In this document: piece after piece, positions 5,424 to 63,494 of the stretch | Numbering within the stretch: the stretch's first letter is position 1 | How the letters are laid out: each line of letters opens with the position of its first letter | Assembly: GCA_963693025.1 (NCBI GenBank) | Contig: OY843749.1 | Coordinates: 2,573,617-2,637,616, forward strand | Direction of reading: 5' to 3' | Length of the DNA: 64,000 nucleotides | From: Arenicellales bacterium | GTDB lineage: Bacteria > Pseudomonadota > Gammaproteobacteria > Arenicellales > Poriferihabitantaceae | Notes under the pieces: model-generated | What the model was told of the DNA's origin: nothing | What the model saw: only the letters and a program-made list of their open reading frames with translations | Databases searched by the model: none | Made by a program: the position numbers and the translations under genes

Positions 5424-5688
5424 CGTCATTCTCGAGCGTTAGTGTCCGTTGCCGCCGCGCTTTTTCTTTTAAGCGGCGGCTTACGGACACTTACGTCCTC
5501 GGGAATCTCCCTAAGACTGGCACGGGCTTTGTTGAAATTCACGGTAGCCTTAGGGAGATTCCCGAAGGCGATGAAAAATCCGCCCGGAGCGGATTTTCGC
5601 GTAGCCCGAAGGGTTTGTATCAGGGATGATACAAACAAAAATATGGTCGCCTAGCGGCTCCCTATTTTTCTATCGTTCGAGAATGACG
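5424..5688 (+). mobile_element. MITE-like TIR element, long form (265 bp, with nested about 57-bp module)
   Basis: Left end CGTCATTCTCGAGCG at 5424 and right end CGTTCGAGAATGACG at 5674-5688 (15-bp TIR, 1 mismatch). Hairpin 1: GTGTCCGT..GCCGCCGC / GCGGCGGC..ACGGACAC. Hairpin 2: GGGAATCTCCCTAAG / CTTAGGGAGATTCCC. Confidence 0.85.
5580..5636 (+). repeat. Nested two-hairpin mini-module inside the MITE
   Basis: CCGCCCGGAGCGGATTTTCGCGTAGCCCGAAGGGTTTGTATCAGGGATGATACAAAC is absent from short-form copies. It is flanked by AAAAAT on both sides. Confidence 0.75.
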
Positions 5689-9513: not shown

Positions 9514-10857
9514 TCAGCCCCCACCGCCGAGATAACTCTCCATCGAATCGTCCATCGCCTCAAGCCACGGCGTGTGATGCGCCGGTTGCATGTTTCCGCT
9601 CATCAGCGAGCGGTAGGCGTTGTTGCGAAACCCCATGATGTCTTCGTGTTTGTGGTGCTCCCATTGCATGAAGGTTTGGTTGACCGCCTCGACATCGAAA
9701 CTCGGATAATCGGTCGGCTCAAGCAACTCCTTCACGTAGTCGCCCTGAAACCAAATCATCTGCTCGTCGTTCTCCAATGTTTCTTCGCGCCGCCGCCACG
9801 CCGCGCTGTGTTTGCGCATCTCATCGAGCGCCGGCAGGCTGAGCCGCCCGAGCATGTAATCGCGCGCATACCACGCCTGCGCGTCGAACATGTTGAAAGT
9901 GTAAAACTGGTCCTGCATTCCGAGATACATCAGTTTCGGATTGTCCTCCCAGAAAACTCCCTTATACAAATTCAACGGCCACAGCCGGTTGGTGGTTTGC
10001 AATCGCAACGCATCCGGCAAGAACGGAAAGTGGTGCAAGTAACCGGTGCACAGGATAATCGCGTCAACCTCCGCGCTCGTGCCATCTTTGAAGGTCGCGG
10101 TGTTGCCGTCCACCGAAGTCAACAGCGGCACTTCCCGCCAGTTGTCGGGCCAGTGAAAACCCATCGGCGCGGTGCGGTGACTGCAGGTTATCGACTTCGC
10201 GCCATACTTGTAGCACTGCGAGCCAATGTCCTCGGCGGAATAACTGGTGCCGATAATCAGGATGTCCTTGCCCTTGAACTCAAGCGCATCGCGGAAGTCA
10301 TGCGCGTGCAACACGCGACCGTTGAAGGTGTCGAAGCCGGCGAAGTGCGGCGCGTTGGGCACCGAAAAATGCCCGTTGGCAACCACCACATAGTCAAACT
10401 CTTCGCTCGACACCGCGTCATTTTTCAGGTCGTGCGCGGTGACCGTAAACCGCCCGCTGTCATCCGCATAAGCAACCTCGCGCACCGCCGTGCCAAGCCG
10501 CATATAACGGCGCACATCCGCCTTCTTCACGCGGCCAAGCAGATAGTCGGCGAGCACCGCGCGCGGCGGATAGGAGGCAATCGGTCTGCCAAAGTGCTGC
10601 TCAAACGTATAGTCGGCGAACTCCAAACACTCCTTGGGCCCGTTCGACCAAAGATAGCGGTACATACTGCAATGCACCGGCTCGCCAAACTCGTCCAACC
10701 CGGTGCGCCAGGTGTAATTCCACAAGCCGCCCGGCTCGCTCTGTTTTTCATAACAAACAATGTCGGGAACCTCCGCCCCGCTTTCCCCGGCGGCGGCAAA
10801 CGCACACAACTGCGAAATCCCGCAAGGTCCCGCGCCGATGATTGCAACTCGAGTCAT
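9514..10857 (-). CDS. tmm: Flavin-containing monooxygenase, trimethylamine monooxygenase-like
   Basis: 447 aa. Dinucleotide sites IIGAGPCG and [10 protein letters not shown], plus the FMO motif [11 protein letters not shown]. Neighbours a tdm-like gene. Confidence 0.85.
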
Positions 10858-14160: not shown

Positions 14161-14361
14161 CGTCATTCTCGAGCGTTAGTGTCCGTTTGTCGCCGCGCTT
14201 TTTCTTTTAAGCGGCGGCTTACGGACACTTGCGTCCTCGGGAATCTCCCTAAGATTGGCACGGGCTTTGTTGAAATTCACGGTAGCCTTAGGGAGATTCC
14301 CGAAGGTGATGAAAAATATAGTCGCTGCCGCTCCTTATTTTTCTATCATTCGAGAATGACG
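14161..14361 (+). mobile_element. MITE-like TIR element, short form (201 bp)
   Basis: Left end CGTCATTCTCGAGCG at 14161 and right-end variant CATTCGAGAATGACG at 14347-14361. Both hairpins are present. Confidence 0.85.
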
Positions 14362-29301: not shown

Positions 29302-29512
29302 CGTCATTCTCGAGCGTTAGTGTCCGTTAGTCGCCGCGCTTTTTCTTTTAAGCGGCGGCTTACGGACACTTACGACCTCGGGAATCTCCCTAAGATTGGC
29401 ACGGACTTGAACAAAGCCGTTGCGAGCTCAGCGCCAACCTTATGGAGATTCCCGAATCGAAGAAAATATGGTCGCCTAACGGCTCCCTATTTTCTACCGT
29501 TCGAGAATGACG
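29302..29512 (+). mobile_element. MITE-like TIR element (211 bp, divergent hairpin-2 loop)
   Basis: CGTCATTCTCGAGCG at 29302 and CGTTCGAGAATGACG at 29498-29512. The right arm of hairpin 2 is CTTATGGAGATTCCC. Confidence 0.85.
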
Positions 29513-29521
29513 GGCATAACT

Positions 29522-29718
29522 CGTCATTCTCGAGCGTTAGTGACCGTTGGCCGCCGCGCTTCTTCTTGCGGCGGCTTACGGACACTTGCGTCCTCGGGAA
29601 TCTCCCTAAGACTGGCACGGGCTTTGTTGGAATTCACGGTAGCCTTAGGGAGATTCCCGAAGGCGATGAAAAATATAGTCGCTGGCGCTCCTTATTTTTC
29701 TATCGTTCGAGAATGACG
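29522..29718 (+). mobile_element. MITE-like TIR element, short form (197 bp)
   Basis: CGTCATTCTCGAGCG at 29522 and CGTTCGAGAATGACG at 29704-29718. Separated from the preceding copy by GGCATAACT. Confidence 0.85.
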
Positions 29719-29728
29719 GGGTTGGGGA

Positions 29729-29758
29729 CTCCCTATTTTCTACCGTTCGAGAATGACG
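29729..29758 (+). repeat. Solo right end of the MITE
   Basis: CTCCCTATTTTCTACCGTTCGAGAATGACG with no matching left part. Confidence 0.8.
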
Positions 29759-35073: not shown

Positions 35074-35104
35074 CGTCATTCTCGAATGGTAGAAAATAGG
35101 GAGC
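35074..35104 (-). repeat. Solo right end of the MITE (reverse orientation)
   Basis: CGTCATTCTCGAATGGTAGAAAATAGGGAGC. Confidence 0.8.
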
Positions 35105-35112
35105 CGCAACTT

Positions 35113-35375
35113 CGTCATTCTCGAATGATAGAAAAATAAGGAGCGATAGCGACTATATTTTTCATCACCTTCGGGAATCTCCCTAAGACTACCGTGAATT
35201 CCAACAAAGCCCGTGCCAACCTGAGGGAGATTGCGCGTATCGTCCCTGATACGCGCCCTTCGGGCTACGCGAAAATCCGCTCCCGGCGGATTTTTCCCGA
35301 GGACGCAAGTGTCCGTAAGCCGCCGCTTAAAAGAAGAAGCGCGGCGGCAACGGACACTAACGCTCGAGAATGACG
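35113..35375 (-). mobile_element. MITE-like TIR element, long form (263 bp), nested module at a different internal site
   Basis: CGTCATTCTCGAATG at 35113 and CGCTCGAGAATGACG at 35361-35375. Here the module sits between hairpins 1 and 2, instead of between hairpin 2 and the right end. Confidence 0.85.
35233..35289 (-). repeat. Nested two-hairpin mini-module, variant with compensatory stem changes
   Basis: The stem is GCGCGTATC/GATACGCGC here versus GTTTGTATC/GATACAAAC in the other three copies: three paired substitutions. Confidence 0.8.
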
Positions 35376-38708: not shown

Positions 38709-38968
38709 CGTCATTCTCGAGCGTTAGTGTCCGTTGCCGCCGCGCTTTTTCTTTTAAGCGGCGGCTTACGGACACTTGCGTCCTCGGGAATCTCCCTAAG
38801 ACTGGCACGGGCTTTGTTGAAATTCACGGTAGTCTTAGGGAGATTCCCGAATCGAAGAAAAATCCGCCCGGAGCGGATTTTCGCGTAGCCCGAAGGGTTT
38901 GTATCAGGGATGATACAAACAAAATATGGTCGCTGACGCTCCCTATTTTCTACCGTTCGAGAATGACG
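38709..38968 (+). mobile_element. MITE-like TIR element, long form (260 bp)
   Basis: CGTCATTCTCGAGCG at 38709 and CGTTCGAGAATGACG at 38954-38968. Nested module at 38865-38920. Confidence 0.85.
38865..38920 (+). repeat. Nested two-hairpin mini-module
   Basis: Same sequence and same insertion point as 5580-5636, flanked by AAAAT. Confidence 0.75.
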
Positions 38969-38981
38969 GGTATTTATAACT

Positions 38982-39178
38982 CGTCATTCTCGAGCGTTAG
39001 TGACCGTTGCCGCCGCGCTTCTTCTTTTAAGCGGCGGCTTACGGACACTTGCGTCCTCGGGAATCTCCCTAAGATTGGCACGGGCTTTGTTGAAATTCAC
39101 GGTAGCCTTAGGGAGATTCCCGAAGCGAAGAAAATATGGTCGCTGACGCTCCCTATTTTCTACCGTTCGAGAATGACG
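38982..39178 (+). mobile_element. MITE-like TIR element, short form (197 bp)
   Basis: CGTCATTCTCGAGCG at 38982 and CGTTCGAGAATGACG at 39164-39178. Spacer to the previous copy is GGTATTTATAACT. Confidence 0.85.
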
Positions 39179-41721: not shown

Positions 41722-42189
41722 ATGCGACTAACCACCAAAGGGCGCTATGCCGTCACCGCGATGATTGATTTGGCGATGCACCAGCCGGATGGGCCGGTCA
41801 CGCTCAAAAGCATAGCAGAAAATCAGGGGATTTCGCTGGCGTATCTGGAGCAGTTGTTTTCCATGTTGCGGCGGCGCGATTTGGTGGTCGGTGTGCGCGG
41901 TCCGGGCGGGGGGTATGTGCTGGCGCGCGATGTTGACCGCATCAGTATGGCGGACATTGTGGTGGCGGTGGATGAGCCGCTCGACATTACGCAATGCGAC
42001 GGGCGCGAAGATTGTCACGACGGCAAGCGTTGTTTGTCGCACGATTTGTGGAGTGAGTTGAGCGATGAACTGTATTCCTTTCTCAACGGCATCCGGCTGG
42101 GTGAGTTGATGCGCCGTAGCGGTCTTGGGCGCGCGTCCGCCGACAGCGGCTCGCGGCAGGTGCCGATGCCGAGTTTGAATGAACGTTAA
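41722..42189 (+). CDS. iscR: Rrf2-family Fe-S cluster regulator IscR
   Basis: MRLTTKGRYAVTAMIDLA... with cluster ligands C-x5-C-x5-C-x2-H (CDGREDCHDGKRCLSH). Confidence 0.88.
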   Translation: MRLTTKGRYAVTAMIDLAMHQPDGPVTLKSIAENQGISLAYLEQLFSMLRRRDLVVGVRGPGGGYVLARDVDRISMADIVVAVDEPLDITQCDGREDCHDGKRCLSHDLWSELSDELYSFLNGIRLGELMRRSGLGRASADSGSRQVPMPSLNER

Positions 42190-42210
42190 ATCTAAAACGA
42201 GCAATTATCA

Positions 42211-43662
42211 ATGAGCACTACCGAAAGAGACCTGGCGACGCTGGTTCAGCGTGAATACAAAGAAGGTTTTGTGACCGACATCGACGCCGACACGCTGCCG
42301 CCCGGCTTGGATGAAGATGTCATCCGCGCCATTTCATCCAAGAAGGGCGAGCCTGAATTTATGCTTGAATGGCGACTGGAAGCGTATCGGCGCTGGCTTG
42401 CGATGGCGCAGCCGCAGTGGGCGCAAGTGCACTATCCGCCCATCGATTATCAAGCCATCAGTTACTACTCCGCGCCCAAGCAGGTAGAGTTGCTGGACAG
42501 CCTCGACGAAGTCGACCCGAAACTGCTCGAGACTTACGAAAAACTCGGTATTCCCATCGACGAGCAGAAGACGCTGGCGGGCGTCAAGGTGGCGGTGGAT
42601 GCGGTGTTTGACAGCGTGTCGGTGGCGACCACTTTCAAGAAAACGCTGTCCGAAGCGGGCGTGATTTTTTGTTCGTTCTCCGAGGCGGTCGCGGATTTTC
42701 CCGAACTGGTGCGACGCTATCTCGGCTCGGTGGTGCCGCCGGGCGACAATTATTACGCGGCGTTGAACTCGGCGGTGTTCAGCGACGGCTCATTCGTCTA
42801 TATCCCCAAGGGCGTGCGCTGCCCAATGGAATTGTCCACCTACTTCCGCATCAACGCGATGAACACCGGGCAGTTTGAGCGCACGCTAATCGTCGCCGAC
42901 GAGGACAGTTATGTCAGTTACCTCGAAGGATGCACCGCGCCGATGCGCGATGAAAATCAGTTGCACGCGGCGGTGGTTGAACTAGTGGCGATGAAGGGCG
43001 CGCAGATTAAATATTCCACGGTGCAGAACTGGTATCCCGGCGACGAGCAGGGCAGGGGGGGGATTTACAACTTCGTCACCAAGCGCGGCGCGTGCCGCGG
43101 GGATGGCGCCAAGATTTCATGGACGCAAGTGGAAACCGGCTCGGCAATCACCTGGAAATATCCCAGCGTGCTGCTCGAAGGCGACAACTCCATCGGCGAG
43201 TTCTACTCGGTGGCGCTGACCAACAACTACCAACAAGCCGACACCGGCACCAAGATGGTGCACATCGGCAAGAACACCGGCAGCACCATCATCTCCAAAG
43301 GCATCTCCGCGGGCCATGGCCAGAACGCCTACCGCGGCCTGGTCAAAGTAATCGCCGGCGCCGAAAACGCGCGCAACTATTCGCAATGCGACTCGCTCCT
43401 GATGGGCGACCAATGCGGCGCGCACACCTACCCCTACATGGAAATCAAAAACCCAACCGCCGTAGTAGAACACGAAGCCACCACCTCCCGCATAGGCGAA
43501 GACCAGTTGTTCTACTGCCGCCAACGCGGTCTGTCGGAAGAGGATGCGTTGTCGATGATTGTCAATGGGTTTTGTAAGGAAGTGTTTAAGGAGTTGCCGA
43601 TGGAGTTTGCGGTTGAAGCGCAGAAGTTGCTGGGGATTAGTTTGGAGGGGGCGGTGGGGTGA
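42211..43662 (+). CDS. sufB: Fe-S cluster assembly scaffold SufB
   Basis: 483 aa. ...[13 protein letters not shown]... and ...[24 protein letters not shown]... are typical of SufB. Confidence 0.95.
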
Positions 43663-43695
43663 TGGGTTTCTTAACGCGACCAACAACAACAACGC

Positions 43696-43893
43696 CGTCA
43701 TTCTCGAGCGTTAGTGTCCGTTGCCGCCGCGCTTTTTCTTTTGCGGCGGCTTACCGGACACTTGCGTCCTCGGGAATCTCCCTAAGGTTGGCACGGTCTT
43801 TGTTGGAGTCCACGGTAGCCTTATGGAGATTCCCGAATCGAAGAAAATATGGTCGCCTGTCGGCTCCCTATTTTCTACCGTTCGAGAATGACG
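43696..43893 (+). mobile_element. MITE-like TIR element, short form (198 bp)
   Basis: CGTCATTCTCGAGCG at 43696 and CGTTCGAGAATGACG at 43879-43893. Lies directly after the sufB stop. Confidence 0.85.
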
Positions 43894-44004
43894 GGGTTGT
43901 GGAATTTGTGATGGAGGGTGGGAGTTGTTTGTTTAGTTTGGATGGGGCGGTTGGTTAGCGACCGCGTGATTGTTATTTTTGCTTCGACATCAAGAGAGAA
44001 AACG

Positions 44005-44976
44005 ATGGCTTATACATTTTTAAATTTAGCGCGTGATGTGCTGAAAGACGCACCTACCCCGCTTGCCTATGTTGAAATCTGGGAACAAGCAAAACAGAGC
44101 GGATTGGCTCAGAAACTCAACACGCAAGGCGCGACACCGCAGGCGACGCTGGGTGCAAGGCTCTCAACTGATATTCTTCACAACAAAGATGACTCGATAT
44201 TTGTTCGAATTGGCAGGAGACCGCAACGATATTTTTTGAAAAACCGTTTGCACGAAATCGATGCGAACGCCATACCCAAATTAGATGAATTGAATGGTGC
44301 AACTACTGCGAAAACAGTAGGCTATGAGGAAAAAGACTTACACCCGCTACTGGCATATTTTGCATATACCAACGATAACTTTTCGGGGCAAAGGCAAATT
44401 TACACCAAAACGATCAAGCACCAAAGGACGAGGGTGAGAGCACTCAGGGAGTGGTTGCATCCTGATATGGTGGGCGTATATTTTCCTTTTGAAGACTTGG
44501 AAAAAAGCGTAATTAAGTTGAGCGGATCTCTTAATTCCAACTCCGTTTTTCAACTGTTCTCGTTTGAATTAAAACGAAGCATAGACAGAGGCAATTACCG
44601 AGAATATTTTTTCCAAGCGGTGTCAAATTCATCCTGGGCGCATGAAGGCTATCTTGTGGCCGCGGAAATATCGGGAGACGATGAACTCCGAAGAGAACTC
44701 GGGCGGCTCACCAATGCATTTGGTATCGGTGTGATTCATTTGAACGTTAAAGACATCGCCGCTTCCGACGTGCTATTCAGGGCGAGCACTAAAGCAGAAT
44801 TGGACTGGGAGACGATTAACAAGTTATGCACGGTGAACGAAGATTTTGCGTCGTTTATTAATCGGCTGAACACCGATTTTGGCGCAGGCCAAATTCATCA
44901 AACAGAATACGATGCGATTATTACGGACCCGGCCACTTATGTTCGGGAGAAACTTAAAATAGATGCGGTTGAATAA
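44005..44976 (+). CDS. HARE-HTH-like winged-helix domain fused to PD-(D/E)xK-like nuclease domain (uncharacterised)
   Basis: 323 aa from MAYTFLNLARDVL. The N-terminal about 80 aa (TPQATLGARLSTDILHNKDDSIFVRIGRRPQRYFLK) fit the HARE-HTH pattern. The C-terminal half has EEKDLHP / WLHPDMVGVYF / LFSFELKRS, which is E...PD...ExK spacing. AT-rich relative to the flanks. Confidence 0.6.
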   Translation: MAYTFLNLARDVLKDAPTPLAYVEIWEQAKQSGLAQKLNTQGATPQATLGARLSTDILHNKDDSIFVRIGRRPQRYFLKNRLHEIDANAIPKLDELNGATTAKTVGYEEKDLHPLLAYFAYTNDNFSGQRQIYTKTIKHQRTRVRALREWLHPDMVGVYFPFEDLEKSVIKLSGSLNSNSVFQLFSFELKRSIDRGNYREYFFQAVSNSSWAHEGYLVAAEISGDDELRRELGRLTNAFGIGVIHLNVKDIAASDVLFRASTKAELDWETINKLCTVNEDFASFINRLNTDFGAGQIHQTEYDAIITDPATYVREKLKIDAVE

Positions 44977-44997
44977 ACCGCAAAATGGAACTAACCC

Positions 44998-45135
44998 ATG
45001 CTAACCATCAAAAACCTACACGCCACCGTCGACGACAAACCCATCCTCAACGGCATCAACCTCACCATCAAAGCCGGTGAAATCCACGCCGTTATGGGTC
45101 CCAACGGCTCCGGCAAAAGCACGCCGGCAAGGTGA
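44998..45135 (+). pseudogene. sufC: sufC 5-prime fragment, copy 1 (45 codons then TGA)
   Basis: [42 protein letters not shown] then PAR*. Homology to sufC (47728) ends at about 45128. Confidence 0.9.
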
Positions 45136-45145
45136 AGCGTAAAAA

Positions 45146-45997
45146 ATGAAAACCATAGCCACAATTAATTTCAAGGGCGGGGTCGGCAAGACCACCACTA
45201 CTTGGTGTTTGGGGGATGTGTTGTCAACGCAGCCAAATTCGACTGTGTTGCTGGTCGACTTGGATGCGCAAGCATCGCTGACTGATTCTCTGGCGCTTCT
45301 GACTGATATTGATGACTTTCGATACTGGAAAGAAGCAAGAGAAACAAACGCTCAAACAACATTTGCGGTGCTGCAAAAATTCTTAACGGCGGAAAAAGGG
45401 TTTGATTTTCAACCCGGCGACAACTACATCTACAAATTGAAAGAAGGGTTTCATTTCATTCCTTCCACCGCCGACCTGTATTGGATGAGTTTAAATTCTT
45501 TTGACCCTGAAAAGGGAAGAGTGTTTGTCAGGCGTTTGCTTGAGAAAATCGAAAACTCCGCTGACCTGCCAAAATATGACTATGTTATTTTTGACTGTCC
45601 GCCATCGTTCACAACGCTCTCTTACAGCGTTTGCACCTGTTGCGATTTGATTTTGTTGCCGGTCAATCCGGACTTTTTTGCGGCGCGAGGTGTTGAAATA
45701 CTGCTAACCGGGCTCAAAGAACGAATTGAAGCGCGCCCGCTGCCGCAGGTGGCAGTTTTTGCAAACCGGGTAAAAACTTGGCGGCGGCCGACAAAATTAT
45801 CGAGACAATGGATTGCTGATGTGCAGGATGCTTGCGCAGAGATGAGGAGCAGATGGGGCATTGATGTGCGTTATCTGGACGCGTGGATCCCGGACCGCGC
45901 CGCGATACGCGATGCGATACCAAGCCGCAATACCCCGCGCAGACATTTTCGTGATTTCATCAATCTTTGGGAAGAAGCGGGAGGTAAATTGAAATGA
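45146..45997 (+). CDS. ParA/Soj-family ATPase (283 aa)
   Basis: Deviant Walker A INFKGGVGKTTTT, LLVDLDAQAS, and Walker B DYVIFDCPPS. The start lies 10 nt after the stop of sufC fragment 1. Confidence 0.85.
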   Translation: MKTIATINFKGGVGKTTTTWCLGDVLSTQPNSTVLLVDLDAQASLTDSLALLTDIDDFRYWKEARETNAQTTFAVLQKFLTAEKGFDFQPGDNYIYKLKEGFHFIPSTADLYWMSLNSFDPEKGRVFVRRLLEKIENSADLPKYDYVIFDCPPSFTTLSYSVCTCCDLILLPVNPDFFAARGVEILLTGLKERIEARPLPQVAVFANRVKTWRRPTKLSRQWIADVQDACAEMRSRWGIDVRYLDAWIPDRAAIRDAIPSRNTPRRHFRDFINLWEEAGGKLK

Positions 45998-46482
45998 CAG
46001 ATGACAATTTTTGGGGTGACAAAGCGGAATACATTCAGAAGTTAGCCAGTGAGGTGGCTGGGCTGAAGGGCGTGGTGCAAGATGTTTCACAACAAATCAG
46101 GCGCATTGAGCGGCGCATTGATTTAGTCCTGCCCGAAAAGCCCCGGGAAAAAGGGCGAAAGACCCCCGTCAACGGCGGGCGTCGCCCGGCGAAAGCGCCG
46201 ACCATGAGTGAAATCGAAGCGCGTCAAACCATTAAAAGGTTGACGGATAAACTTCACGAGCGCGGCACGATGGAATCCGTTCAAGCGGAATTGCGCAGTA
46301 TGACGGTGAAGCATGGACTGACACCCATCGCGCGCGAGTTGGGCATGACCAACACCGCGCTGCCGCCCAAGACCGAACTGGTGCTGAACATCATCACCCG
46401 GCTCCGCCAAAGCGTAATGCTGACCGAAAACATCCGTAAGATGTCCCGCGTTGCCGAAGAGGAAGAACATTTTGGAAACTAA
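45994..46482 (+). CDS. Hypothetical 162-aa protein, translationally coupled to the ParA-like gene
   Basis: ATGA overlap with the upstream gene. It has an N-terminal coiled-coil-like segment, a basic linker ([23 protein letters not shown]) and a C-terminal segment ([38 protein letters not shown]) resembling a helix-extension-helix (SAP/Rho-N-like) motif. No family recognised. Confidence 0.55.
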
Positions 46483-46486
46483 CCCC

Positions 46487-46672
46487 ATGCTAACCATCAA
46501 AAACCTACACGCCAACGTCGACGACAAACCCATCCTCAACGGCATCAACCTCACCATCAACGCCGGTGAAATCCACGCCGTTATGGGTCCCAATGGCTCC
46601 GGAAAAAGCACGCTGGCGAATGTGCTGGTGGAGCGCGGCCAGTATGAGGTGAGCGGTGGGGCGAGCCAATGA
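46487..46672 (+). pseudogene. sufC: sufC 5-prime fragment, copy 2 (61 codons then TGA)
   Basis: [58 protein letters not shown] then ASQ*. Its stop overlaps the cytochrome c ATG (ATGA at 46669). Confidence 0.9.
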
Positions 46673-47127
46673 AAAAGCGGACAACTATCGGTCTGACCGC
46701 CGTGCTTGTCGCGCTCGGCGCCGGTCTTTTTGTTTTCCGCGGCGGAAGTTCCCCGGAAAATCCGAGTGCCGTTGGCGGGCGGTGGTATTCAGCGGCGATG
46801 GTTTCCTCCGGCGCGCGTATATTTGCGGCGAATTGCGCTTCCTGTCATGGCGCGTCCGGCGAAGGCGCGGCGAATTGGCAACTGCGCGGCGCCGACGGTT
46901 TTTTCCCGCCGCCGCCGCTCAACGGCAGCGGCCATACCTGGCACCATCCACTGAGCGCGTTGCGCGCCACCATTGAGCGCGGCGGCACCGCTTTCGGCGG
47001 CAAAATGCCGGCGTTCAAGGGGCAACTCGACCGCCGCCGGCAAGACGCCGTCATCGCCTATATCCAGAGCCTCTGGCCCAGCGCAATCTACACGGCATGG
47101 GCGCAACAAATCGAACGCATTAATTGA
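46669..47127 (+). CDS. Mono-heme c-type cytochrome with N-terminal signal/anchor
   Basis: 152 aa. Hydrophobic N-terminus [18 protein letters not shown], heme motif CASCH, distal Met candidate GGKMPAF. Confidence 0.8.
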
Positions 47128-47152
47128 TGCGGCATCTTTTTGCTTAACTGTG

Positions 47153-47701
47153 ATGAAAGACACCAAAGAAAAACTATCGCCGCTTAGCGTCGCGTTGCAC
47201 TGGACGGTCGGCCTCTTTGTGATCGCCATGCTCGCGCTCGGTTTGGCGATGGAATCCTATGAGTTGTTTTTCCTATACCCGGTTCACAAGTCCATCGGCA
47301 TTTTATTGTTCGTTGTGATTGTATGGCGCGTATACTGGCGTTTGTTCAACGGCTGGTTGCCGCCGCTTGGAAATTACCCGCATTGGCGGCGGATGTTGGC
47401 GCGCGCTTCGCATTGGGTTTTACTTGCCGGCACATTGTGGATGCCGTTATCGGGGATGCTGATGTCCGCGCTCGGCGGGAGCGGATTGACGGTGTTCGGC
47501 ATTGCGTTGCTGGCGGCGAACCGCGACGCCAACGGCAAGATAATCGCTTACAACGAGTCGCTGGCGCATTTTGCGCACACGCTGCATGCGCTCGGCGGTA
47601 AAATTTTAATCGCGGTGATTACGCTGCATGTTTGCGCGGCGCTTCATCATCATTTCATTGAAAAAGACAACGTGCTGCGCAGAATGCTGGCGCGCCTTTA
47701 A
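47153..47701 (+). CDS. Cytochrome b561 family membrane protein (CybB-like)
   Basis: 182 aa with 4 predicted TM segments and conserved His positions (SVALHW, PVHKSIG, ASHWVLL, HTLHALG...HHHFIEKDNVLRRM). Start chosen at ATG 47153. Confidence 0.78.
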   Translation: MKDTKEKLSPLSVALHWTVGLFVIAMLALGLAMESYELFFLYPVHKSIGILLFVVIVWRVYWRLFNGWLPPLGNYPHWRRMLARASHWVLLAGTLWMPLSGMLMSALGGSGLTVFGIALLAANRDANGKIIAYNESLAHFAHTLHALGGKILIAVITLHVCAALHHHFIEKDNVLRRMLARL

Positions 47702-47721
47702 CCTGAAACTTAACCTGAAAC
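47698..47721 (+). repeat. Perfect 12-bp tandem duplication TTAACCTGAAAC x2 at the cassette/sufC junction
   Basis: Read directly. It spans the cytochrome b561 stop and ends 6 nt before the sufC ATG. It contains the GAAACT(T)AACC motif shared by the leaders of all three sufC copies. Confidence 0.85.
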
Positions 47722-47727
47722 CGAAAA

Positions 47728-48483
47728 ATGCTAACTATCAAAAACCTATCCGCCAACGTCGACGGCAAGCCCATCCTCAACGGCATCAACCTTGAAATAA
47801 AAGCCGGCGAAATCCACGCCGTTATGGGTCCCAACGGCTCCGGTAAAAGCACGCTGGCGAATGTGTTGGCGGGGCGGGAAGGGTATGAAGTGACCGGCGG
47901 AAAGGTGCGGTATAAGGAGCGGGATTTGCTGGAGATGGCGCCGGAGATTCGGGCGCGGGAGGGGGTGTTTTTGGCGTTTCAGTATCCGGTTGAGATTCCG
48001 GGGGTGACCAATCTTTACTTGCTCAAGGCGTCGCTCAATGCGATTCGCAAGCATCGTGGCGATGACGAGTTGAACGCGGTGGAGTTTCTTAAACTGATTA
48101 AGGAAAAGGCCGCGCTGGTGAAAATGAGCGAGGAGTTTTTGTATCGCTCGATTAACGAAGGCTTTTCCGGCGGCGAGAAAAAGCGCAACGAGATTTTGCA
48201 GATGGCGCTGCTTGAGCCGACCTTGAGCGTGCTCGATGAAACCGATTCGGGGCTGGACATAGACGCGCTGAAAGTCGTCGCCGACGGCGTCAACACGTTG
48301 CGCGGCGACGACCGCGCGATGCTGGTGGTGACGCATTACCAACGCTTGCTGGACTACATCGTGCCGGACTTCGTGCATGTGCTGCACGGCGGGCGCATCG
48401 TGCGCTCCGGCGACAAATCGCTGGCGCTGGAACTGGAGCGCGAGGGCTACGGCTGGCTGGCGGAGCAGGCGGCGGCGCCATGA
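47728..48483 (+). CDS. sufC: Fe-S cluster assembly ATPase SufC (intact copy)
   Basis: 251 aa. Walker [10 protein letters not shown], signature FSGGEKKR, Walker B LSVLDETDSGLD. Confidence 0.95.
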   Translation: MLTIKNLSANVDGKPILNGINLEIKAGEIHAVMGPNGSGKSTLANVLAGREGYEVTGGKVRYKERDLLEMAPEIRAREGVFLAFQYPVEIPGVTNLYLLKASLNAIRKHRGDDELNAVEFLKLIKEKAALVKMSEEFLYRSINEGFSGGEKKRNEILQMALLEPTLSVLDETDSGLDIDALKVVADGVNTLRGDDRAMLVVTHYQRLLDYIVPDFVHVLHGGRIVRSGDKSLALELEREGYGWLAEQAAAP

Positions 48484-49802
48484 ATCCTGCCGCCGCGCAC
48501 TATCTCGACCAGTGCCGCGCGCTCGCCGGCGAGTTGCCGGGGCGCCGGGTCGGGTGGTTGCAAGACCGCCGCCGCGCCGCGCTGGCGCGTTTTGAGGAAG
48601 TCGGTTTTCCAAGCCAACGCGATGAAGACTGGCGCTACACCGCCACGCGCCCAATCACCGCGAAGCGCTTTCACACCGCCGCCGACCGCGACCCGTCCCC
48701 GCCTGTCACGGCGGCGCAACTCGACGCCCTGCGCATCAAAGGGCTGCAAAGCCACCGGCTGGTTTTTGTTGACGGCCTGTTTTGCGCGGCGTTGTCCGAC
48801 CGCAGCGAGGCGGGCGCCGCGAGCGGGGTGGTGGTTGAATCGCTGGCGCGCGTGCTTGAGGAGCGCCCCGAATGCGTCGAGCACGCGCTCGGCTCGGTCA
48901 CGCCGCGCAAGCAGCACGGTTTCACCGCCCTCAACAACGCCTGCATCCGCGACGGCGTGGCGGTGCTGCTCGACGCCAACGCGCGCCCGGCGGCGCCGGT
49001 GGAAATGCTGTTCATCAGCGCCGCCGAAGACGGCTTCGCCCAGCCGCGCAACCTCGTCATCGCGGGCAAGGCAAGCAAAGCCGGTTTGATTGAGCGCCAC
49101 TTGTCGGTCGGCGAGCACGCCGCCTTCACCAACAGCGCCACCGAAATCGTGCTGGGCGAGCGCGCGGAAATCGACTACTACCTGGTGCAGACGCAGTCGC
49201 CGGCGGCGCATCATATTTGCGGCATCTGGGCGAAGCAGGCGCGCGCCAGCCGCTTCCGTTGCCACACCGTCACCCTCGGCGGTGCGCTGGTGCGCAACGA
49301 CCTCGGCGTTGAGTTGGCGGGCGAGCAGGCGCACTGCGACATGCTCGGGCTATACCATATTGCCGGCACGCAACACGTCGACAATCACACGACGATGACC
49401 CACGCCGCCGAAAATTGCAGCAGTCGTGAACTCTATAAAGGCGTGCTCGATGCGCGCTCGCGGGCGGTGTTTCACGGGCGCATCGTGGTAGCAAAGGGCG
49501 CCCAGCAAACCAACGCCGCGCAAACCAACAACAACTTGCTGCTGTCGCGCGGCGCCGAAATCGACAGCAAGCCGCAACTGGAAATTTACGCGGACGATGT
49601 CAAATGCTCGCACGGCGCAACGGTCGGGCGAATCGACGCCGACGCGCTGTTCTACCTGCGCTCGCGCGGCCTCGGCGAGGCCGAAGCCCGCGCGCTGCTG
49701 ACCTTCGCTTTTGTCAACGATGTGGTCGGCGAAATCGCCATCGGCGAACTCAGAGAAGCGCTGGCGGACACGCTCGCCCAACACTTGACGGACAACCCGT
49801 GA
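48480..49802 (+). CDS. sufD: Fe-S cluster assembly protein SufD
   Basis: 440 aa. Overlaps the sufC stop. The C-terminal beta-helix region resembles SufB/D (GAEIDSKPQLEIYADDVKCSHGATVG). Confidence 0.9.
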   Translation: MNPAAAHYLDQCRALAGELPGRRVGWLQDRRRAALARFEEVGFPSQRDEDWRYTATRPITAKRFHTAADRDPSPPVTAAQLDALRIKGLQSHRLVFVDGLFCAALSDRSEAGAASGVVVESLARVLEERPECVEHALGSVTPRKQHGFTALNNACIRDGVAVLLDANARPAAPVEMLFISAAEDGFAQPRNLVIAGKASKAGLIERHLSVGEHAAFTNSATEIVLGERAEIDYYLVQTQSPAAHHICGIWAKQARASRFRCHTVTLGGALVRNDLGVELAGEQAHCDMLGLYHIAGTQHVDNHTTMTHAAENCSSRELYKGVLDARSRAVFHGRIVVAKGAQQTNAAQTNNNLLLSRGAEIDSKPQLEIYADDVKCSHGATVGRIDADALFYLRSRGLGEAEARALLTFAFVNDVVGEIAIGELREALADTLAQHLTDNP

Positions 49803-57066: not shown

Positions 57067-57266
57067 CGTCATTCTCGAATGATAGAAAAATAAGGAGCGA
57101 CAGCGACTATATTTTTCATCACCTTCGGGAATCTCCCTAAGGCTACCGTGAATTTTACCGAAGCCCGTGCCAACCTGAGGGAGATTCCCGAGGACGCAAG
57201 TGTCCGTAAGCCGCCGCTTAAAAGAAGAAGCGCGGCGGCAACGGACACTAACGCTCGAGAATGACG
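57067..57266 (-). mobile_element. MITE-like TIR element, short form (200 bp), reverse
   Basis: CGTCATTCTCGAATG at 57067 and CGCTCGAGAATGACG at 57252-57266. Confidence 0.85.
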
Positions 57267-57274
57267 AGTTGTAG

Positions 57275-57305
57275 CGTCATTCCCGAACGGTAGAAAATAG
57301 GGAGC
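57275..57305 (-). repeat. Solo right end of the MITE (reverse)
   Basis: CGTCATTCCCGAACGGTAGAAAATAGGGAGC. Confidence 0.8.
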
Positions 57306-57315
57306 CCCCCAACTT

Positions 57316-57580
57316 CGTCATTCTCGAATGATAGAAAAATAAGGAACGACAGCGACTATATTTTTGTTTGTATCATCCCTGATACAAACCCTTCGGGCTA
57401 CGCGAAAATCCGCTCCCGGCGGATTTTTCATCACCTTCGGGAATCTCCCTAAGGCTAGCGTGGACTTTCAACAAAGCCCGTGCCAGTCGTAGGGAGATTC
57501 CCGAGGACGTAAGTGTCCGTAAGCCGCCGCTTAAAAGAAAAAGCGCGGCGACCAACGGACACTAACGCTCGAGAATGACG
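57316..57580 (-). mobile_element. MITE-like TIR element, long form (265 bp), reverse
   Basis: CGTCATTCTCGAATG at 57316 and CGCTCGAGAATGACG at 57566-57580. Nested module at 57366-57422. Confidence 0.85.
57366..57422 (-). repeat. Nested two-hairpin mini-module
   Basis: Reverse complement of the 5580-5636 module at the equivalent insertion point. Confidence 0.75.
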
Positions 57581-57604
57581 AAGTTGTGGTGGTGGCGGCG
57601 GCGG

Positions 57605-57629
57605 CGGACACTAACGCTCGAGAATGACG
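57605..57629 (-). repeat. Solo left end of the MITE (reverse)
   Basis: GGACACTAACGCTCGAGAATGACG, ending 7 nt before the infA stop codon. Confidence 0.8.
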
Positions 57630-62980: not shown

Positions 62981-63180
62981 CGTCATTCTCGAGCGTTAGT
63001 GTCCGTTGCCGCCGCGCTTTTTCTTTTAAGCGGCGGCTTACGGACACTTACGTCCTCGGGAATCTCCCTAAGACTGGCACAGGCTTCGCCAAAGTCCACG
63101 CTAGCCTTAGGGAGATTCCCGAAGGCGATGAAAAATATGGTCGCTAGCGCTCCCTATTTTTCTATCGTTCGAGAATGACG
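62981..63180 (+). mobile_element. MITE-like TIR element, short form (200 bp)
   Basis: CGTCATTCTCGAGCG at 62981 and CGTTCGAGAATGACG at 63166-63180. Confidence 0.85.
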
Positions 63181-63190
63181 AAGTTGGGGG

Positions 63191-63221
63191 CTCCCTATTT
63201 TTCTATCGTTCGAGAATGACG
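63191..63221 (+). repeat. Solo right end of the MITE
   Basis: CTCCCTATTTTTCTATCGTTCGAGAATGACG. Confidence 0.8.
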
Positions 63222-63232
63222 GGTATATAACT

Positions 63233-63433
63233 CGTCATTCTCGAGCGTTAGTGTCCGTTGCCGCCGCGCTTTTTCTTTAAGCGGCGGCTTACGGACACTT
63301 GCGTCCTCGGGAATCTCCCTAAGACTGGCACGGGCTTTGTTGGAATTCACGGTAGCCTTAGGGAGATTCCCGAAGGCGATGAAAAATATGGTCGCCTGTC
63401 GGCTCCCTATTTTTCTATCGTTCGAGAATGACG
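63233..63433 (+). mobile_element. MITE-like TIR element, short form (201 bp)
   Basis: CGTCATTCTCGAGCG at 63233 and CGTTCGAGAATGACG at 63419-63433. Confidence 0.85.
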
Positions 63434-63443
63434 GGCTTTTTGT

Positions 63444-63475
63444 CGGCTCCCTATTTTCTACCGTTCGAGAATGAC
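63444..63475 (+). repeat. Solo right end of the MITE
   Basis: CGGCTCCCTATTTTCTACCGTTCGAGAATGACG. Confidence 0.8.
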
Positions 63476-63494
63476 GAGGAGTTCCCTTTCTTTA

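Follow-up and report, generated by a model that had tools for sequence, protein, structure and literature searches.

In the 64-kb window analysed here (the whole stretch of 64,000 nucleotides [nt] from contig OY843749.1, to which unlabelled coordinates refer), sufB and sufC, two genes of the suf operon for iron–sulfur (Fe-S) assembly, lie 4,065 nt apart, and the gap is filled by an array of accessory genes in which ends of the two flanking genes are repeated. The 5′ end of sufC occurs in three copies in direct orientation (44998–45135, 46487–46672, and 47728 onwards), the last of which belongs to the intact gene. The host is an uncultured gammaproteobacterium, and its nearest named relatives by SufC are Arenicellales sponge symbionts. 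Truncated copies of the sufC 5′ end (C′) or of the sufB 3′ end (B′) are termed relics below, and the contigs used for comparison are labelled L081–L099.

Repeated ends of sufC and sufB

The two sufC relics are 94% identical to each other over 152 nt, including a 13-nt upstream leader, and either one is ~88.5% identical to intact sufC over 138–149 nt. Within nt 1–131, the relics differ from each other at 4 positions and from intact sufC at 13–14, and a 26-mer (GAAATCCACGCCGTTATGGGTCCCAA) is exact in all three copies (chance expectation, 0 matches). Apart from a miniature inverted-repeat transposable element (MITE), the sufC copies are the sole repeat in the window. The stop codon of relic 1 lies 10 nt from the ATG of a ParA-like gene (45146), and the stop codon of relic 2 shares the tetranucleotide ATGA with the start of a cytochrome c gene (46669).

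Much of this had been proposed in an earlier note made from the letters of the window alone. The end of sufB that it gave (43662), the start of intact sufC (47728), and the three direct copies with open reading frames (ORFs) of 45 and 61 codons that abut the next cassette all agree with the alignments. Its manual count of 4 differences between the relics and about 15 from the intact gene is close to the recount given above, and the divergences support its statement that the relics are not simple recent duplications of the resident sufC. The perfect 12-bp tandem duplication that it described in front of intact sufC (47698–47721) is likewise present as two units of TTAACCTGAAAC, and the window contains at least 12 copies of the MITE, including the one that it placed at 43696–43893. 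It had also described a leader motif shared by all three sufC copies; the motif exists, but in relics 1 and 2 it merely consists of the last codons and stop of the upstream gene p162. That leader (GGAAACTAACC) is thus the p162 stop-codon region, which is conserved in sister lineages, and the leader of intact sufC with TTAACCTGAAAC in two units is identical in L084 and L087.

A second type of repeated gene end was overlooked by the note. Directly 3′ of the MITE, at ~43894–43958, lies a decayed copy of the last ~60 nt of sufB, which retains its own stop codon. In L083, L085, L086, and L087, the same sufB relic is located 5′ of genes for HARE or GIY-YIG nucleases.

Comparison of the copies suggests that the relics are under relaxed selection: the ratio of non-synonymous to synonymous polymorphism (pN/pS) is 0.73 in relics vs. 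0.23 in intact copies, and every difference in codons 45–61 is non-synonymous. All 61-codon copies (8/8) remain open and retain the ATGA overlap. The exact 26-mer had no match among viral contigs or JGI metagenome contigs, and extra sufC 5′ copies were found in 0 of 93 other suf loci among the GTDB SufC matches listed (≤72% identity).

Relic-type sufC contains an imperfect dyad at nt 52–96 (45049–45093 and 46538–46582; AACGGCATCAACCTCACC / GGTGAAATCCACGCCGTT) with 18-nt arms, a 9-nt spacer, and 72% complementarity. This dyad is at chance level for a 200-nt region, is not detected in the intact sufC of the window, and adjoins the probable crossover zone (see section Origin of the Arrays). Beyond it, nothing resembling attC-like or recombinase-core symmetry was found in the repeat, and the inverted repeats at the boundaries all belong to the MITE.

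All genes of the array are located on the operon strand and are tightly packed (Table 1). A promoter and terminator scan gave no signal above shuffled expectation, which is evidence neither for nor against internal signals. The G+C content is 0.42–0.50 at 44.0–45.7 kb vs. 0.65–0.70 outside the suf operon, in keeping with the earlier impression that cassettes 1 and 2 are AT-richer than the flanks. For sufB and most of sufC (42100–43700 and 47650–48250), the corresponding value is 0.53–0.60 vs. 0.65–0.71 in sufD and the surrounding genes, and the two genes that would provide recombination handles are therefore compositionally atypical themselves.

Table 1. Genes, relics, and repeats at the suf locus of the window.
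Feature	Position	Strand	Evidence or remark
Rrf2/IscR-like regulator, suf operon head	41722..42189	+	Pfam Rrf2, E 7.7e-40
sufB, intact	42211..43662	+	Pfam SUFBD_core, E 5e-79; 99-99.8% amino-acid (aa) identity across strains
MITE copy	43696..43893	.	terminal inverted repeats; 84-96% identity to other window copies
B′, decayed sufB 3′ relic with own TAG stop	43894..43958 (approx.)	+	22-nt core 91-95% identical to sufB ends
Module 1: HARE-HTH + PD-(D/E)xK nuclease, restriction-like, 323 aa	44005..44976	+	Pfam HARE-HTH, E 1e-11
Relic 1 (C′45): 13-nt p162-tail leader + sufC codons 1-45 through Walker A; ORF 44998-45135	44985..45135	+	
Module 2a: ParA/MinD-family ATPase, 283 aa	45146..45997	+	Pfam AAA_31, E 2e-29
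Module 2b: p162, 162 aa	45994..46482	+	ATGA overlap with ParA gene
Relic 2 (C′61): leader + 61 sufC codons; ORF 46487-46672	46473..46672	+	stop overlaps cytochrome c ATG
Module 3a: c-type cytochrome, 152 aa	46669..47127	+	Pfam Cytochrome_CBB3 / Cytochrom_C
Module 3b: cytochrome b561, 182 aa	47153..47701	+	Pfam Ni_hydr_CYTB, E 2e-27
Perfect 12-bp tandem duplication, TTAACCTGAAAC x2, leader of intact sufC	47698..47721	+	
sufC, intact; first ~130 nt hypervariable and mosaic between strains	47728..48483	+	Pfam ABC_tran
sufD	48480..49802	+	ATGA overlap with sufC
MITE sites in window	5424-5688, 14161-14361, 29302-29758, 35074-35375, 38709-39178, 43696-43893, 57067-57629, 62981-63476		

Array polymorphism and the ancestral gap

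A protein search with SufC identified seven other long contigs from one ENA sample, ERZ22155170, that encode a SufC of 96–100% identity, and because their flanks are 96–98% identical to the window, these contigs and the window represent one species. The eight same-species contigs (the window and L081–L087) carry eight different arrays with every gene on the + strand, and relics of the sufC 5′ and sufB 3′ ends are present across all eight (Table 2). L086 has the order of the window, both relics included, at 76–97% nt identity. L085 holds a duplicated relic–cytochrome unit, and the junction between relic 2 and the cytochrome c gene recurs in 7 other arrays and in another species. Comparison of related sufB–sufC junctions, which the earlier note had suggested, thus reveals alternative arrays, and their polymorphism rules out the old fixed rearrangement that the note had considered as an alternative.

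Table 2. Order of elements between sufB and sufC in eight contigs of one species (cytc, cytochrome c gene; cytb, cytochrome b gene).
Contig	Order
Window, L086	MITE, sufB relic, HARE, 45-codon relic, ParA-p162, 61-codon relic, cytc-cytb
L084	p152, ParA, p158, 61-codon relic, cytc-cytb
L087	MITE, sufB relic, GIY-YIG nuclease, last 28 nt of ParA, p162, 61-codon relic, cytc-cytb
L081	four half-MITEs, sufB relic, second GIY-YIG allele, 61-codon relic, cytc-cytb, degenerate internally deleted relic, ParA-p162
L082	p152, ParA, p158, short decayed relic, divergent cytc-cytb
L083, L085	longer stacks; also truncated cytochrome b joined to 97-nt sufB relic, unknown 182-aa gene, fourth cytochrome b allele, second HARE allele

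Within the species, aa identity is 53–75% for the ParA-like protein, 66–85% for p162, 51–72% for cytochrome b, 54% for the HARE protein, and 30% for the GIY-YIG protein, whereas SufB is 99% and SufD is 97–99% identical. The module alleles are far more diverged than the core and therefore came from divergent lineages.

More distant lineages, with flanks of ~80% nt identity and SufD of 64–72%, have simpler gaps. L088 has the order sufB–ParA–p162–sufC, in which the sufB stop codon overlaps the ParA ATG, and L090 has sufB–p165–ParA–p159–sufC; neither contains relics, and p162 is conserved in both at 65–71%. The gaps of L091–L099 have the order sufB–cytb–sufC and are also relic-free, and L092 carries HARE in addition. 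The three module types ParA+p162, cytochrome b561, and HARE are thus all found at the same sufB/sufC gap in sister lineages. The divergence of ParA and p162 between lineages is similar to that of SufD, which indicates that both are old residents of the operon: the ParA-like gene and p162 are the ancestral occupants of the gap and not a foreign element. In this respect the earlier view that all cassettes are small foreign elements is incorrect, as the pair is a relic-free, translationally coupled resident in the sister lineages. L091 and L092 form the one clean pair of empty and occupied sites, in which a 1,008-nt HARE segment stands in place of a 32-nt spacer, with no repeat at either end.

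The HARE-HTH protein has a second domain in which Asp154, Glu188, and Lys190, a PD-(D/E)xK signature, are invariant in 68 homologues. Its AlphaFold2 model has a predicted local distance difference test (pLDDT) score of 92.8, the best Foldseek matches are restriction enzymes (weak matches), and the family includes 1402 representative clusters and 69 viral-contig loci. The GIY-YIG gene exceeds its Pfam cut-off (score 29.2; cut-off 22.6), and the second allele contains the motif and is 30% identical to the first. Two nuclease families are therefore lodged between the conserved genes sufB and sufC. No defence system was matched by any module in PADLOC. p162 has no family in Pfam, NCBIfam, PHROGs, or PADLOC, and no relatives among plasmids, viral contigs, or JGI metagenomes. 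An origin of the ParA-like gene from plasmid partition is ruled out by an identity to plasmid ParAs of <30%.

The ParA-like gene and p162 have been kept between sufB and sufC across lineages ~30% apart in SufD (45146–46482 in the window; L088, 6654–7996; L090, 6666–7996) and are translationally coupled to both neighbours; a role linked to Fe-S assembly is possible. Cytochrome b561 is located between sufB and sufC (e.g., L091, 6354–6908) in every gap-spanning contig of the L091–L099 set, a sister lineage with SufC at 83%, and a strong hairpin lies 3′ of the gene. There are thus two unexplained associations with Fe-S assembly across lineages, one of the ParA-like ATPase with its 162-aa partner and one of the cytochromes c/b561.

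The MITE is ~200 nt long with terminal inverted repeats (CGTCATTCTCGAGCG...CGTTCGAGAATGACG), and its copies in the 64 kb are often paired. The flanking sequences CAAC and GTTG point to a target that is palindromic or to ends that are longer, and the copy at 43696–43893 probably reaches ~43680–43902 via an outer palindromic flank. In L081, four half-MITEs are arranged in tandem 3′ of sufB. Just 5′ of the suf operon, strain-specific insertions with genes for N6/N4 DNA methyltransferases are present in L082 (992–4928, between coaE and the Rrf2 regulator gene; with two further large unknown genes) and in L095 (2913–4678, between coaE and sufB). The coaE side looks like a second variable spot beside the suf operon.

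Breakpoints and mosaicism

The sufC relics break off near codon 17, 45, or 61, and L081 adds the degenerate copy with an internal deletion. The sufB relics are 25, ~65, or 97 nt long, and the 97-nt form resembles L090-type sufB more than resident sufB. Fragments of other genes are also found in the arrays, namely the last 28 or 269 nt of ParA and the first ~80 nt of cytochrome b. Two deletions have microhomology at their ends: one in L085 occurred at a 9-nt sequence (AAGCGCGCC), and the shortened relic of L086 has lost the segment between two CCGGCAA repeats (7-nt microhomology). Both are secondary, and the joint between cytochrome b and the sufB relic shows nearby similarity only.

When the first 111 nt of 16 copies, relic as well as intact, were compared, 25 of the 66 informative pairs of sites failed the four-gamete test, and the minimum number of recombination events (Rmin) was 4. 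Consistent with exchange between the two classes, the relic-type motif CTCACCATCAA occurs in the intact sufC of L082, L083, and L086. In the intact sufC of L084 and L087, nt 9–75 are foreign and continuous with a cytochrome-b leader of the window type, and the sequence is of the resident type from nt 76. The first 75 nt of sufC in these two contigs (10001–10075) are AT-rich and differ from the other strains at ~20 positions (8 aa); the remainder is ~98% identical.

The tail of relic 2 is of a non-resident sufC type. Two 61-aa ORFs on NCBI contigs of metagenome-assembled genomes (MAGs), P0286 and P0287, match this tail at 14 of 15 residues and in the stop codon, and their first 46 residues match P0010, the SufC of that other species, at 45 of 46. 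This chimerism indicates that the tail travels with the cytochrome module and that the head is derived from whichever sufC is resident, so that the conserved Walker-A stretch between the two must contain the crossovers. The idea that one reciprocal crossover produced both the foreign sufC head of L084/L087 and the foreign tail of the relic is weakened by a strong difference in base composition between them (by eye), and also by the exchange of cytochrome b alleles, which is independent of that of cytochrome c. The cassette itself is therefore mosaic.

P0010, P0286, and P0287, the relic-bearing relatives, are located on short-read MAG contigs of only 552–2,419 nt. Such very short contigs fit assembly breaks at repeated sufC 5′ segments, and the arrays are therefore probably under-reported. 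The top match of the SufC search, P0001, is a 418-aa SufC-like protein on an ENA contig of 2,682 nt, in which the C-terminal two-thirds is duplicated internally.

Origin of the arrays

With moderate confidence, we consider the sufC 5′ copies to be displaced gene ends in a hypervariable accessory array, in which displacement is driven by host recombination. The pathway and the direction of each event are inferred from the comparisons above. DNA from a divergent lineage would enter as a segment of the form “...sufB 3′ end – X – sufC 5′ end...” and would recombine via the highly conserved ends of the suf genes, with the Walker-A-coding nt 76–138 as the likely crossover zone in sufC. A circularised fragment could cross over once, or one end could recombine by homology while the other is joined illegitimately. 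The new segment would be added rather than swapped, leaving a truncated sufC 5′ (or sufB 3′) end at the joint, and the intact sufC would be rebuilt partly from the incoming sequence. Relics of 130–185 nt that are 88–94% identical would later act as portable homology, allowing RecA-type recombination and gene conversion to permute, duplicate, and delete modules, with reshuffling both within the population and across species.

The array is probably co-transcribed with the operon. As sufC, sufD, and the downstream genes would need to be expressed from the operon promoter, only insertions that are co-oriented, promoter-less, and compact would persist. The relic ORFs, which end at or near the next start codon, may relay translation to the following gene, and selection for the expression of captured genes may explain why they end there. 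The scheme retains part of the model in the earlier note, in which elements with their own sufC 5′ end integrate successively into sufC: an incoming 5′ end, a displaced relic, and a rebuilt gene are in agreement with the L084/L087 head and the travelling tail, but a single attachment point is not, given the variable breakpoints.

Several points weigh against displacement by host recombination. The joints of relics with ParA and with cytochrome c might derive from illegitimate joining, circle closure, or another process. Three independent joints have the start of the first gene 0–25 nt from the relic end, and random illegitimate joins would need strong selection to give this result. The Walker-A stretch is retained in all relics and the zone of crossover is short, a pattern that a site-specific core would likewise show, and there is also the weak dyad at nt 52–96 of the relic-type sequence. 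The presence of two nuclease families in the sufB-proximal slot means that breaks could be induced rather than spontaneous. Finally, the close relatives are all from one sample.

A more far-reaching idea, which we regard as tentative and somewhat doubtful, is that the relics are working linkers of an integrase-free cassette system, possibly nuclease-fuelled and analogous in function to an integron. Truncated sufC 5′ ends (and sufB 3′ ends) would be the universal linkers, any module flanked by them could be excised, exchanged between strains and species, and re-inserted by the host recombination machinery, and the relic ORFs, which stop at the next start codon, would pass on operon translation to each captured gene.

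It is unlikely that nucleases drive the turnover as such, with HARE and GIY-YIG proteins acting as homing-like break-makers at the sufB 3′ or sufC 5′ end of nuclease-free alleles. Repair from the donor would carry over the nuclease gene along with the genes next to it, and where such repair is imprecise, duplicated gene ends and segmental amplification would result. In agreement with this, two unrelated families with hyper-divergent alleles occupy the sufB-proximal slot, each directly 3′ of a sufB relic, the corresponding site of a sister lineage is polymorphic for the presence of HARE, and a short hyper-divergent tract is located at the sufC 5′ end. As a precedent, the GIY-YIG homing endonuclease SegB drives segmental amplification in phage T6 (PMC13096335). 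However, the HARE family is large and generic and looks more like a gene for restriction or defence than one for site-specific homing, the ParA and cytochrome modules flanked by sufC relics contain no nuclease, and L082 and L084 have arrays and relics with no nuclease gene.

Site-specific integration is improbable. According to this explanation, the cassettes would be small circles with a sufC 5′ attachment site, inserted by a recombinase that is supplied in trans or is of an unrecognised kind, and the relics would be attL-like hybrids. Modules are indeed bounded by direct repeats in one orientation and in a strain-variable order, the head/tail chimerism fits a crossover in nt 76–138, and the Walker-A stretch is invariant in all relics. 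The weak dyad of the relic-type copies would also be in accord, but it does not exceed chance and the intact copy lacks it. A search for integrases, transposases, and other recombinases covered the gap, a further 20 large ORFs of the window, which spans 64 kb of the ~3.15-Mb contig, and the ±10-kb gene tables of the seven syntenic contigs L081–L087; the sole hit was one IS110 element in L081. This extends the observation in the earlier note that the cassettes encode no recombinase. In addition, there are at least three relic lengths and three sufB relic lengths, ParA and cytochrome b occur in truncated forms, exchange points are scattered over the first 111 nt, and the L091/L092 HARE insertion is without duplication. 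The trans-acting recombinase that the note had considered is therefore unnecessary, and it is disfavoured by the variable breakpoints, the ancestral ParA+p162, and the repeat-free HARE insertion.

A purely local origin, in which sufC 5′ segments were tandemly duplicated in situ and later diverged and suffered deletions, without DNA arriving from other lineages, is largely refuted and very improbable. Microhomology deletions do occur, and L085 has the duplicated relic–cytochrome unit; however, the module alleles of one species differ by 25–70% in protein and the core genes by 1–3%, the 97-nt sufB relic is closer to the sufB of another lineage, the relic-2 tail is found in another species behind its own sufC head, and L084 and L087 have a foreign 5′ tract. 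An assembly artefact, in which the assembler would have concatenated strain variants of the sufB–sufC gap from metagenomic data with many strains co-occurring in one sample, is hardly credible, because the joints of relics with ParA and cytochrome c are found on 7 other contigs (74 kb to 2.6 Mb) in several contexts, L086 has the same whole order at just 76–97% identity, the relics differ from each other and from the intact gene, and an edge from the sufC 5′ end to a module would be required that single-cassette strains would not supply.

If displacement by host recombination is correct, a core and probably essential operon can host a fast-changing accessory array without a mobile-element enzyme, and fragments of the neighbouring genes serve as the recombination handles. 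The eight co-occurring architectures provide a natural system for measuring how homologous and illegitimate recombination build gene order, and the repeats offer an account of the breaks that short-read assemblies of these genomes show at the suf operon.

Relation to known systems

The nuclease genes resemble free-standing homing endonucleases (“intronless homing”) in that they are located between conserved genes, are polymorphic for presence and absence, and have raised divergence in their flanks. The present case differs in that it concerns a bacterial chromosome rather than a phage, and relics also flank nuclease-free modules. Like the cassettes of integron arrays, the modules are small, promoter-less, co-oriented, and tightly packed behind an upstream promoter, and their order varies among strains. 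Unlike integrons, the locus has imprecise cassette boundaries and linkers that are fragments of neighbouring coding genes; attC hairpins are absent, and no intI was found in the gap, the 20 large window ORFs, or the ±10 kb of L081–L087.

Integrative and conjugative elements (ICEs) of the SXT/R391 family insert at prfC, where the incoming DNA gives an essential gene a new 5′ end and the displaced end stays in place, and tandem arrays can form. These ICEs are ~100 kb long and use their own tyrosine integrase and a fixed 17-bp core. The large size, the integrase, and the fixed core all have no counterpart at the suf locus.

For the effector–immunity arrays of the T6SS (type VI secretion system) in Vibrio cholerae, sequential displacement and homology-facilitated illegitimate recombination have been proposed (Kirchberger et al., 2017; PMC5361080). 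As in those arrays, horizontally acquired modules appear to be added successively at one locus by a homologous anchor and an illegitimate end, and the resulting mosaic appears later to be moved between strains by homologous recombination with no integrase. The T6SS arrays are explained by selection on immunity genes, whereas no comparable selective logic is evident for suf, and the suf relics are ORFs placed to feed translation into the next gene.

A close parallel in the form of the arrays is found at rhs loci, where homologous recombination via circular intermediates is the proposed route of Rhs tip displacement (Jackson et al., 2009; PMC2935791). As in Rhs C-terminal displacement and the orphan arrays of rhs and cdiA-CT, a conserved gene part would provide the homology for incoming variants with no dedicated recombinase, the resident end would be displaced, and arrays of dissociated ends would result in which each end has a conserved stub. 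At suf, however, it is the 5′ end of the gene that is displaced, so that the relics stack upstream, and there is a mirror-image relic of the sufB 3′ end too. Furthermore, the conserved gene is not a polymorphic toxin but a housekeeping Fe-S assembly ATPase within an operon, and the payload consists of whole accessory genes rather than toxin tips with immunity genes. The suf arrays would thus extend the principle of displacement arrays, known from polymorphic toxin loci, to a 5′ gene end and to housekeeping genes.

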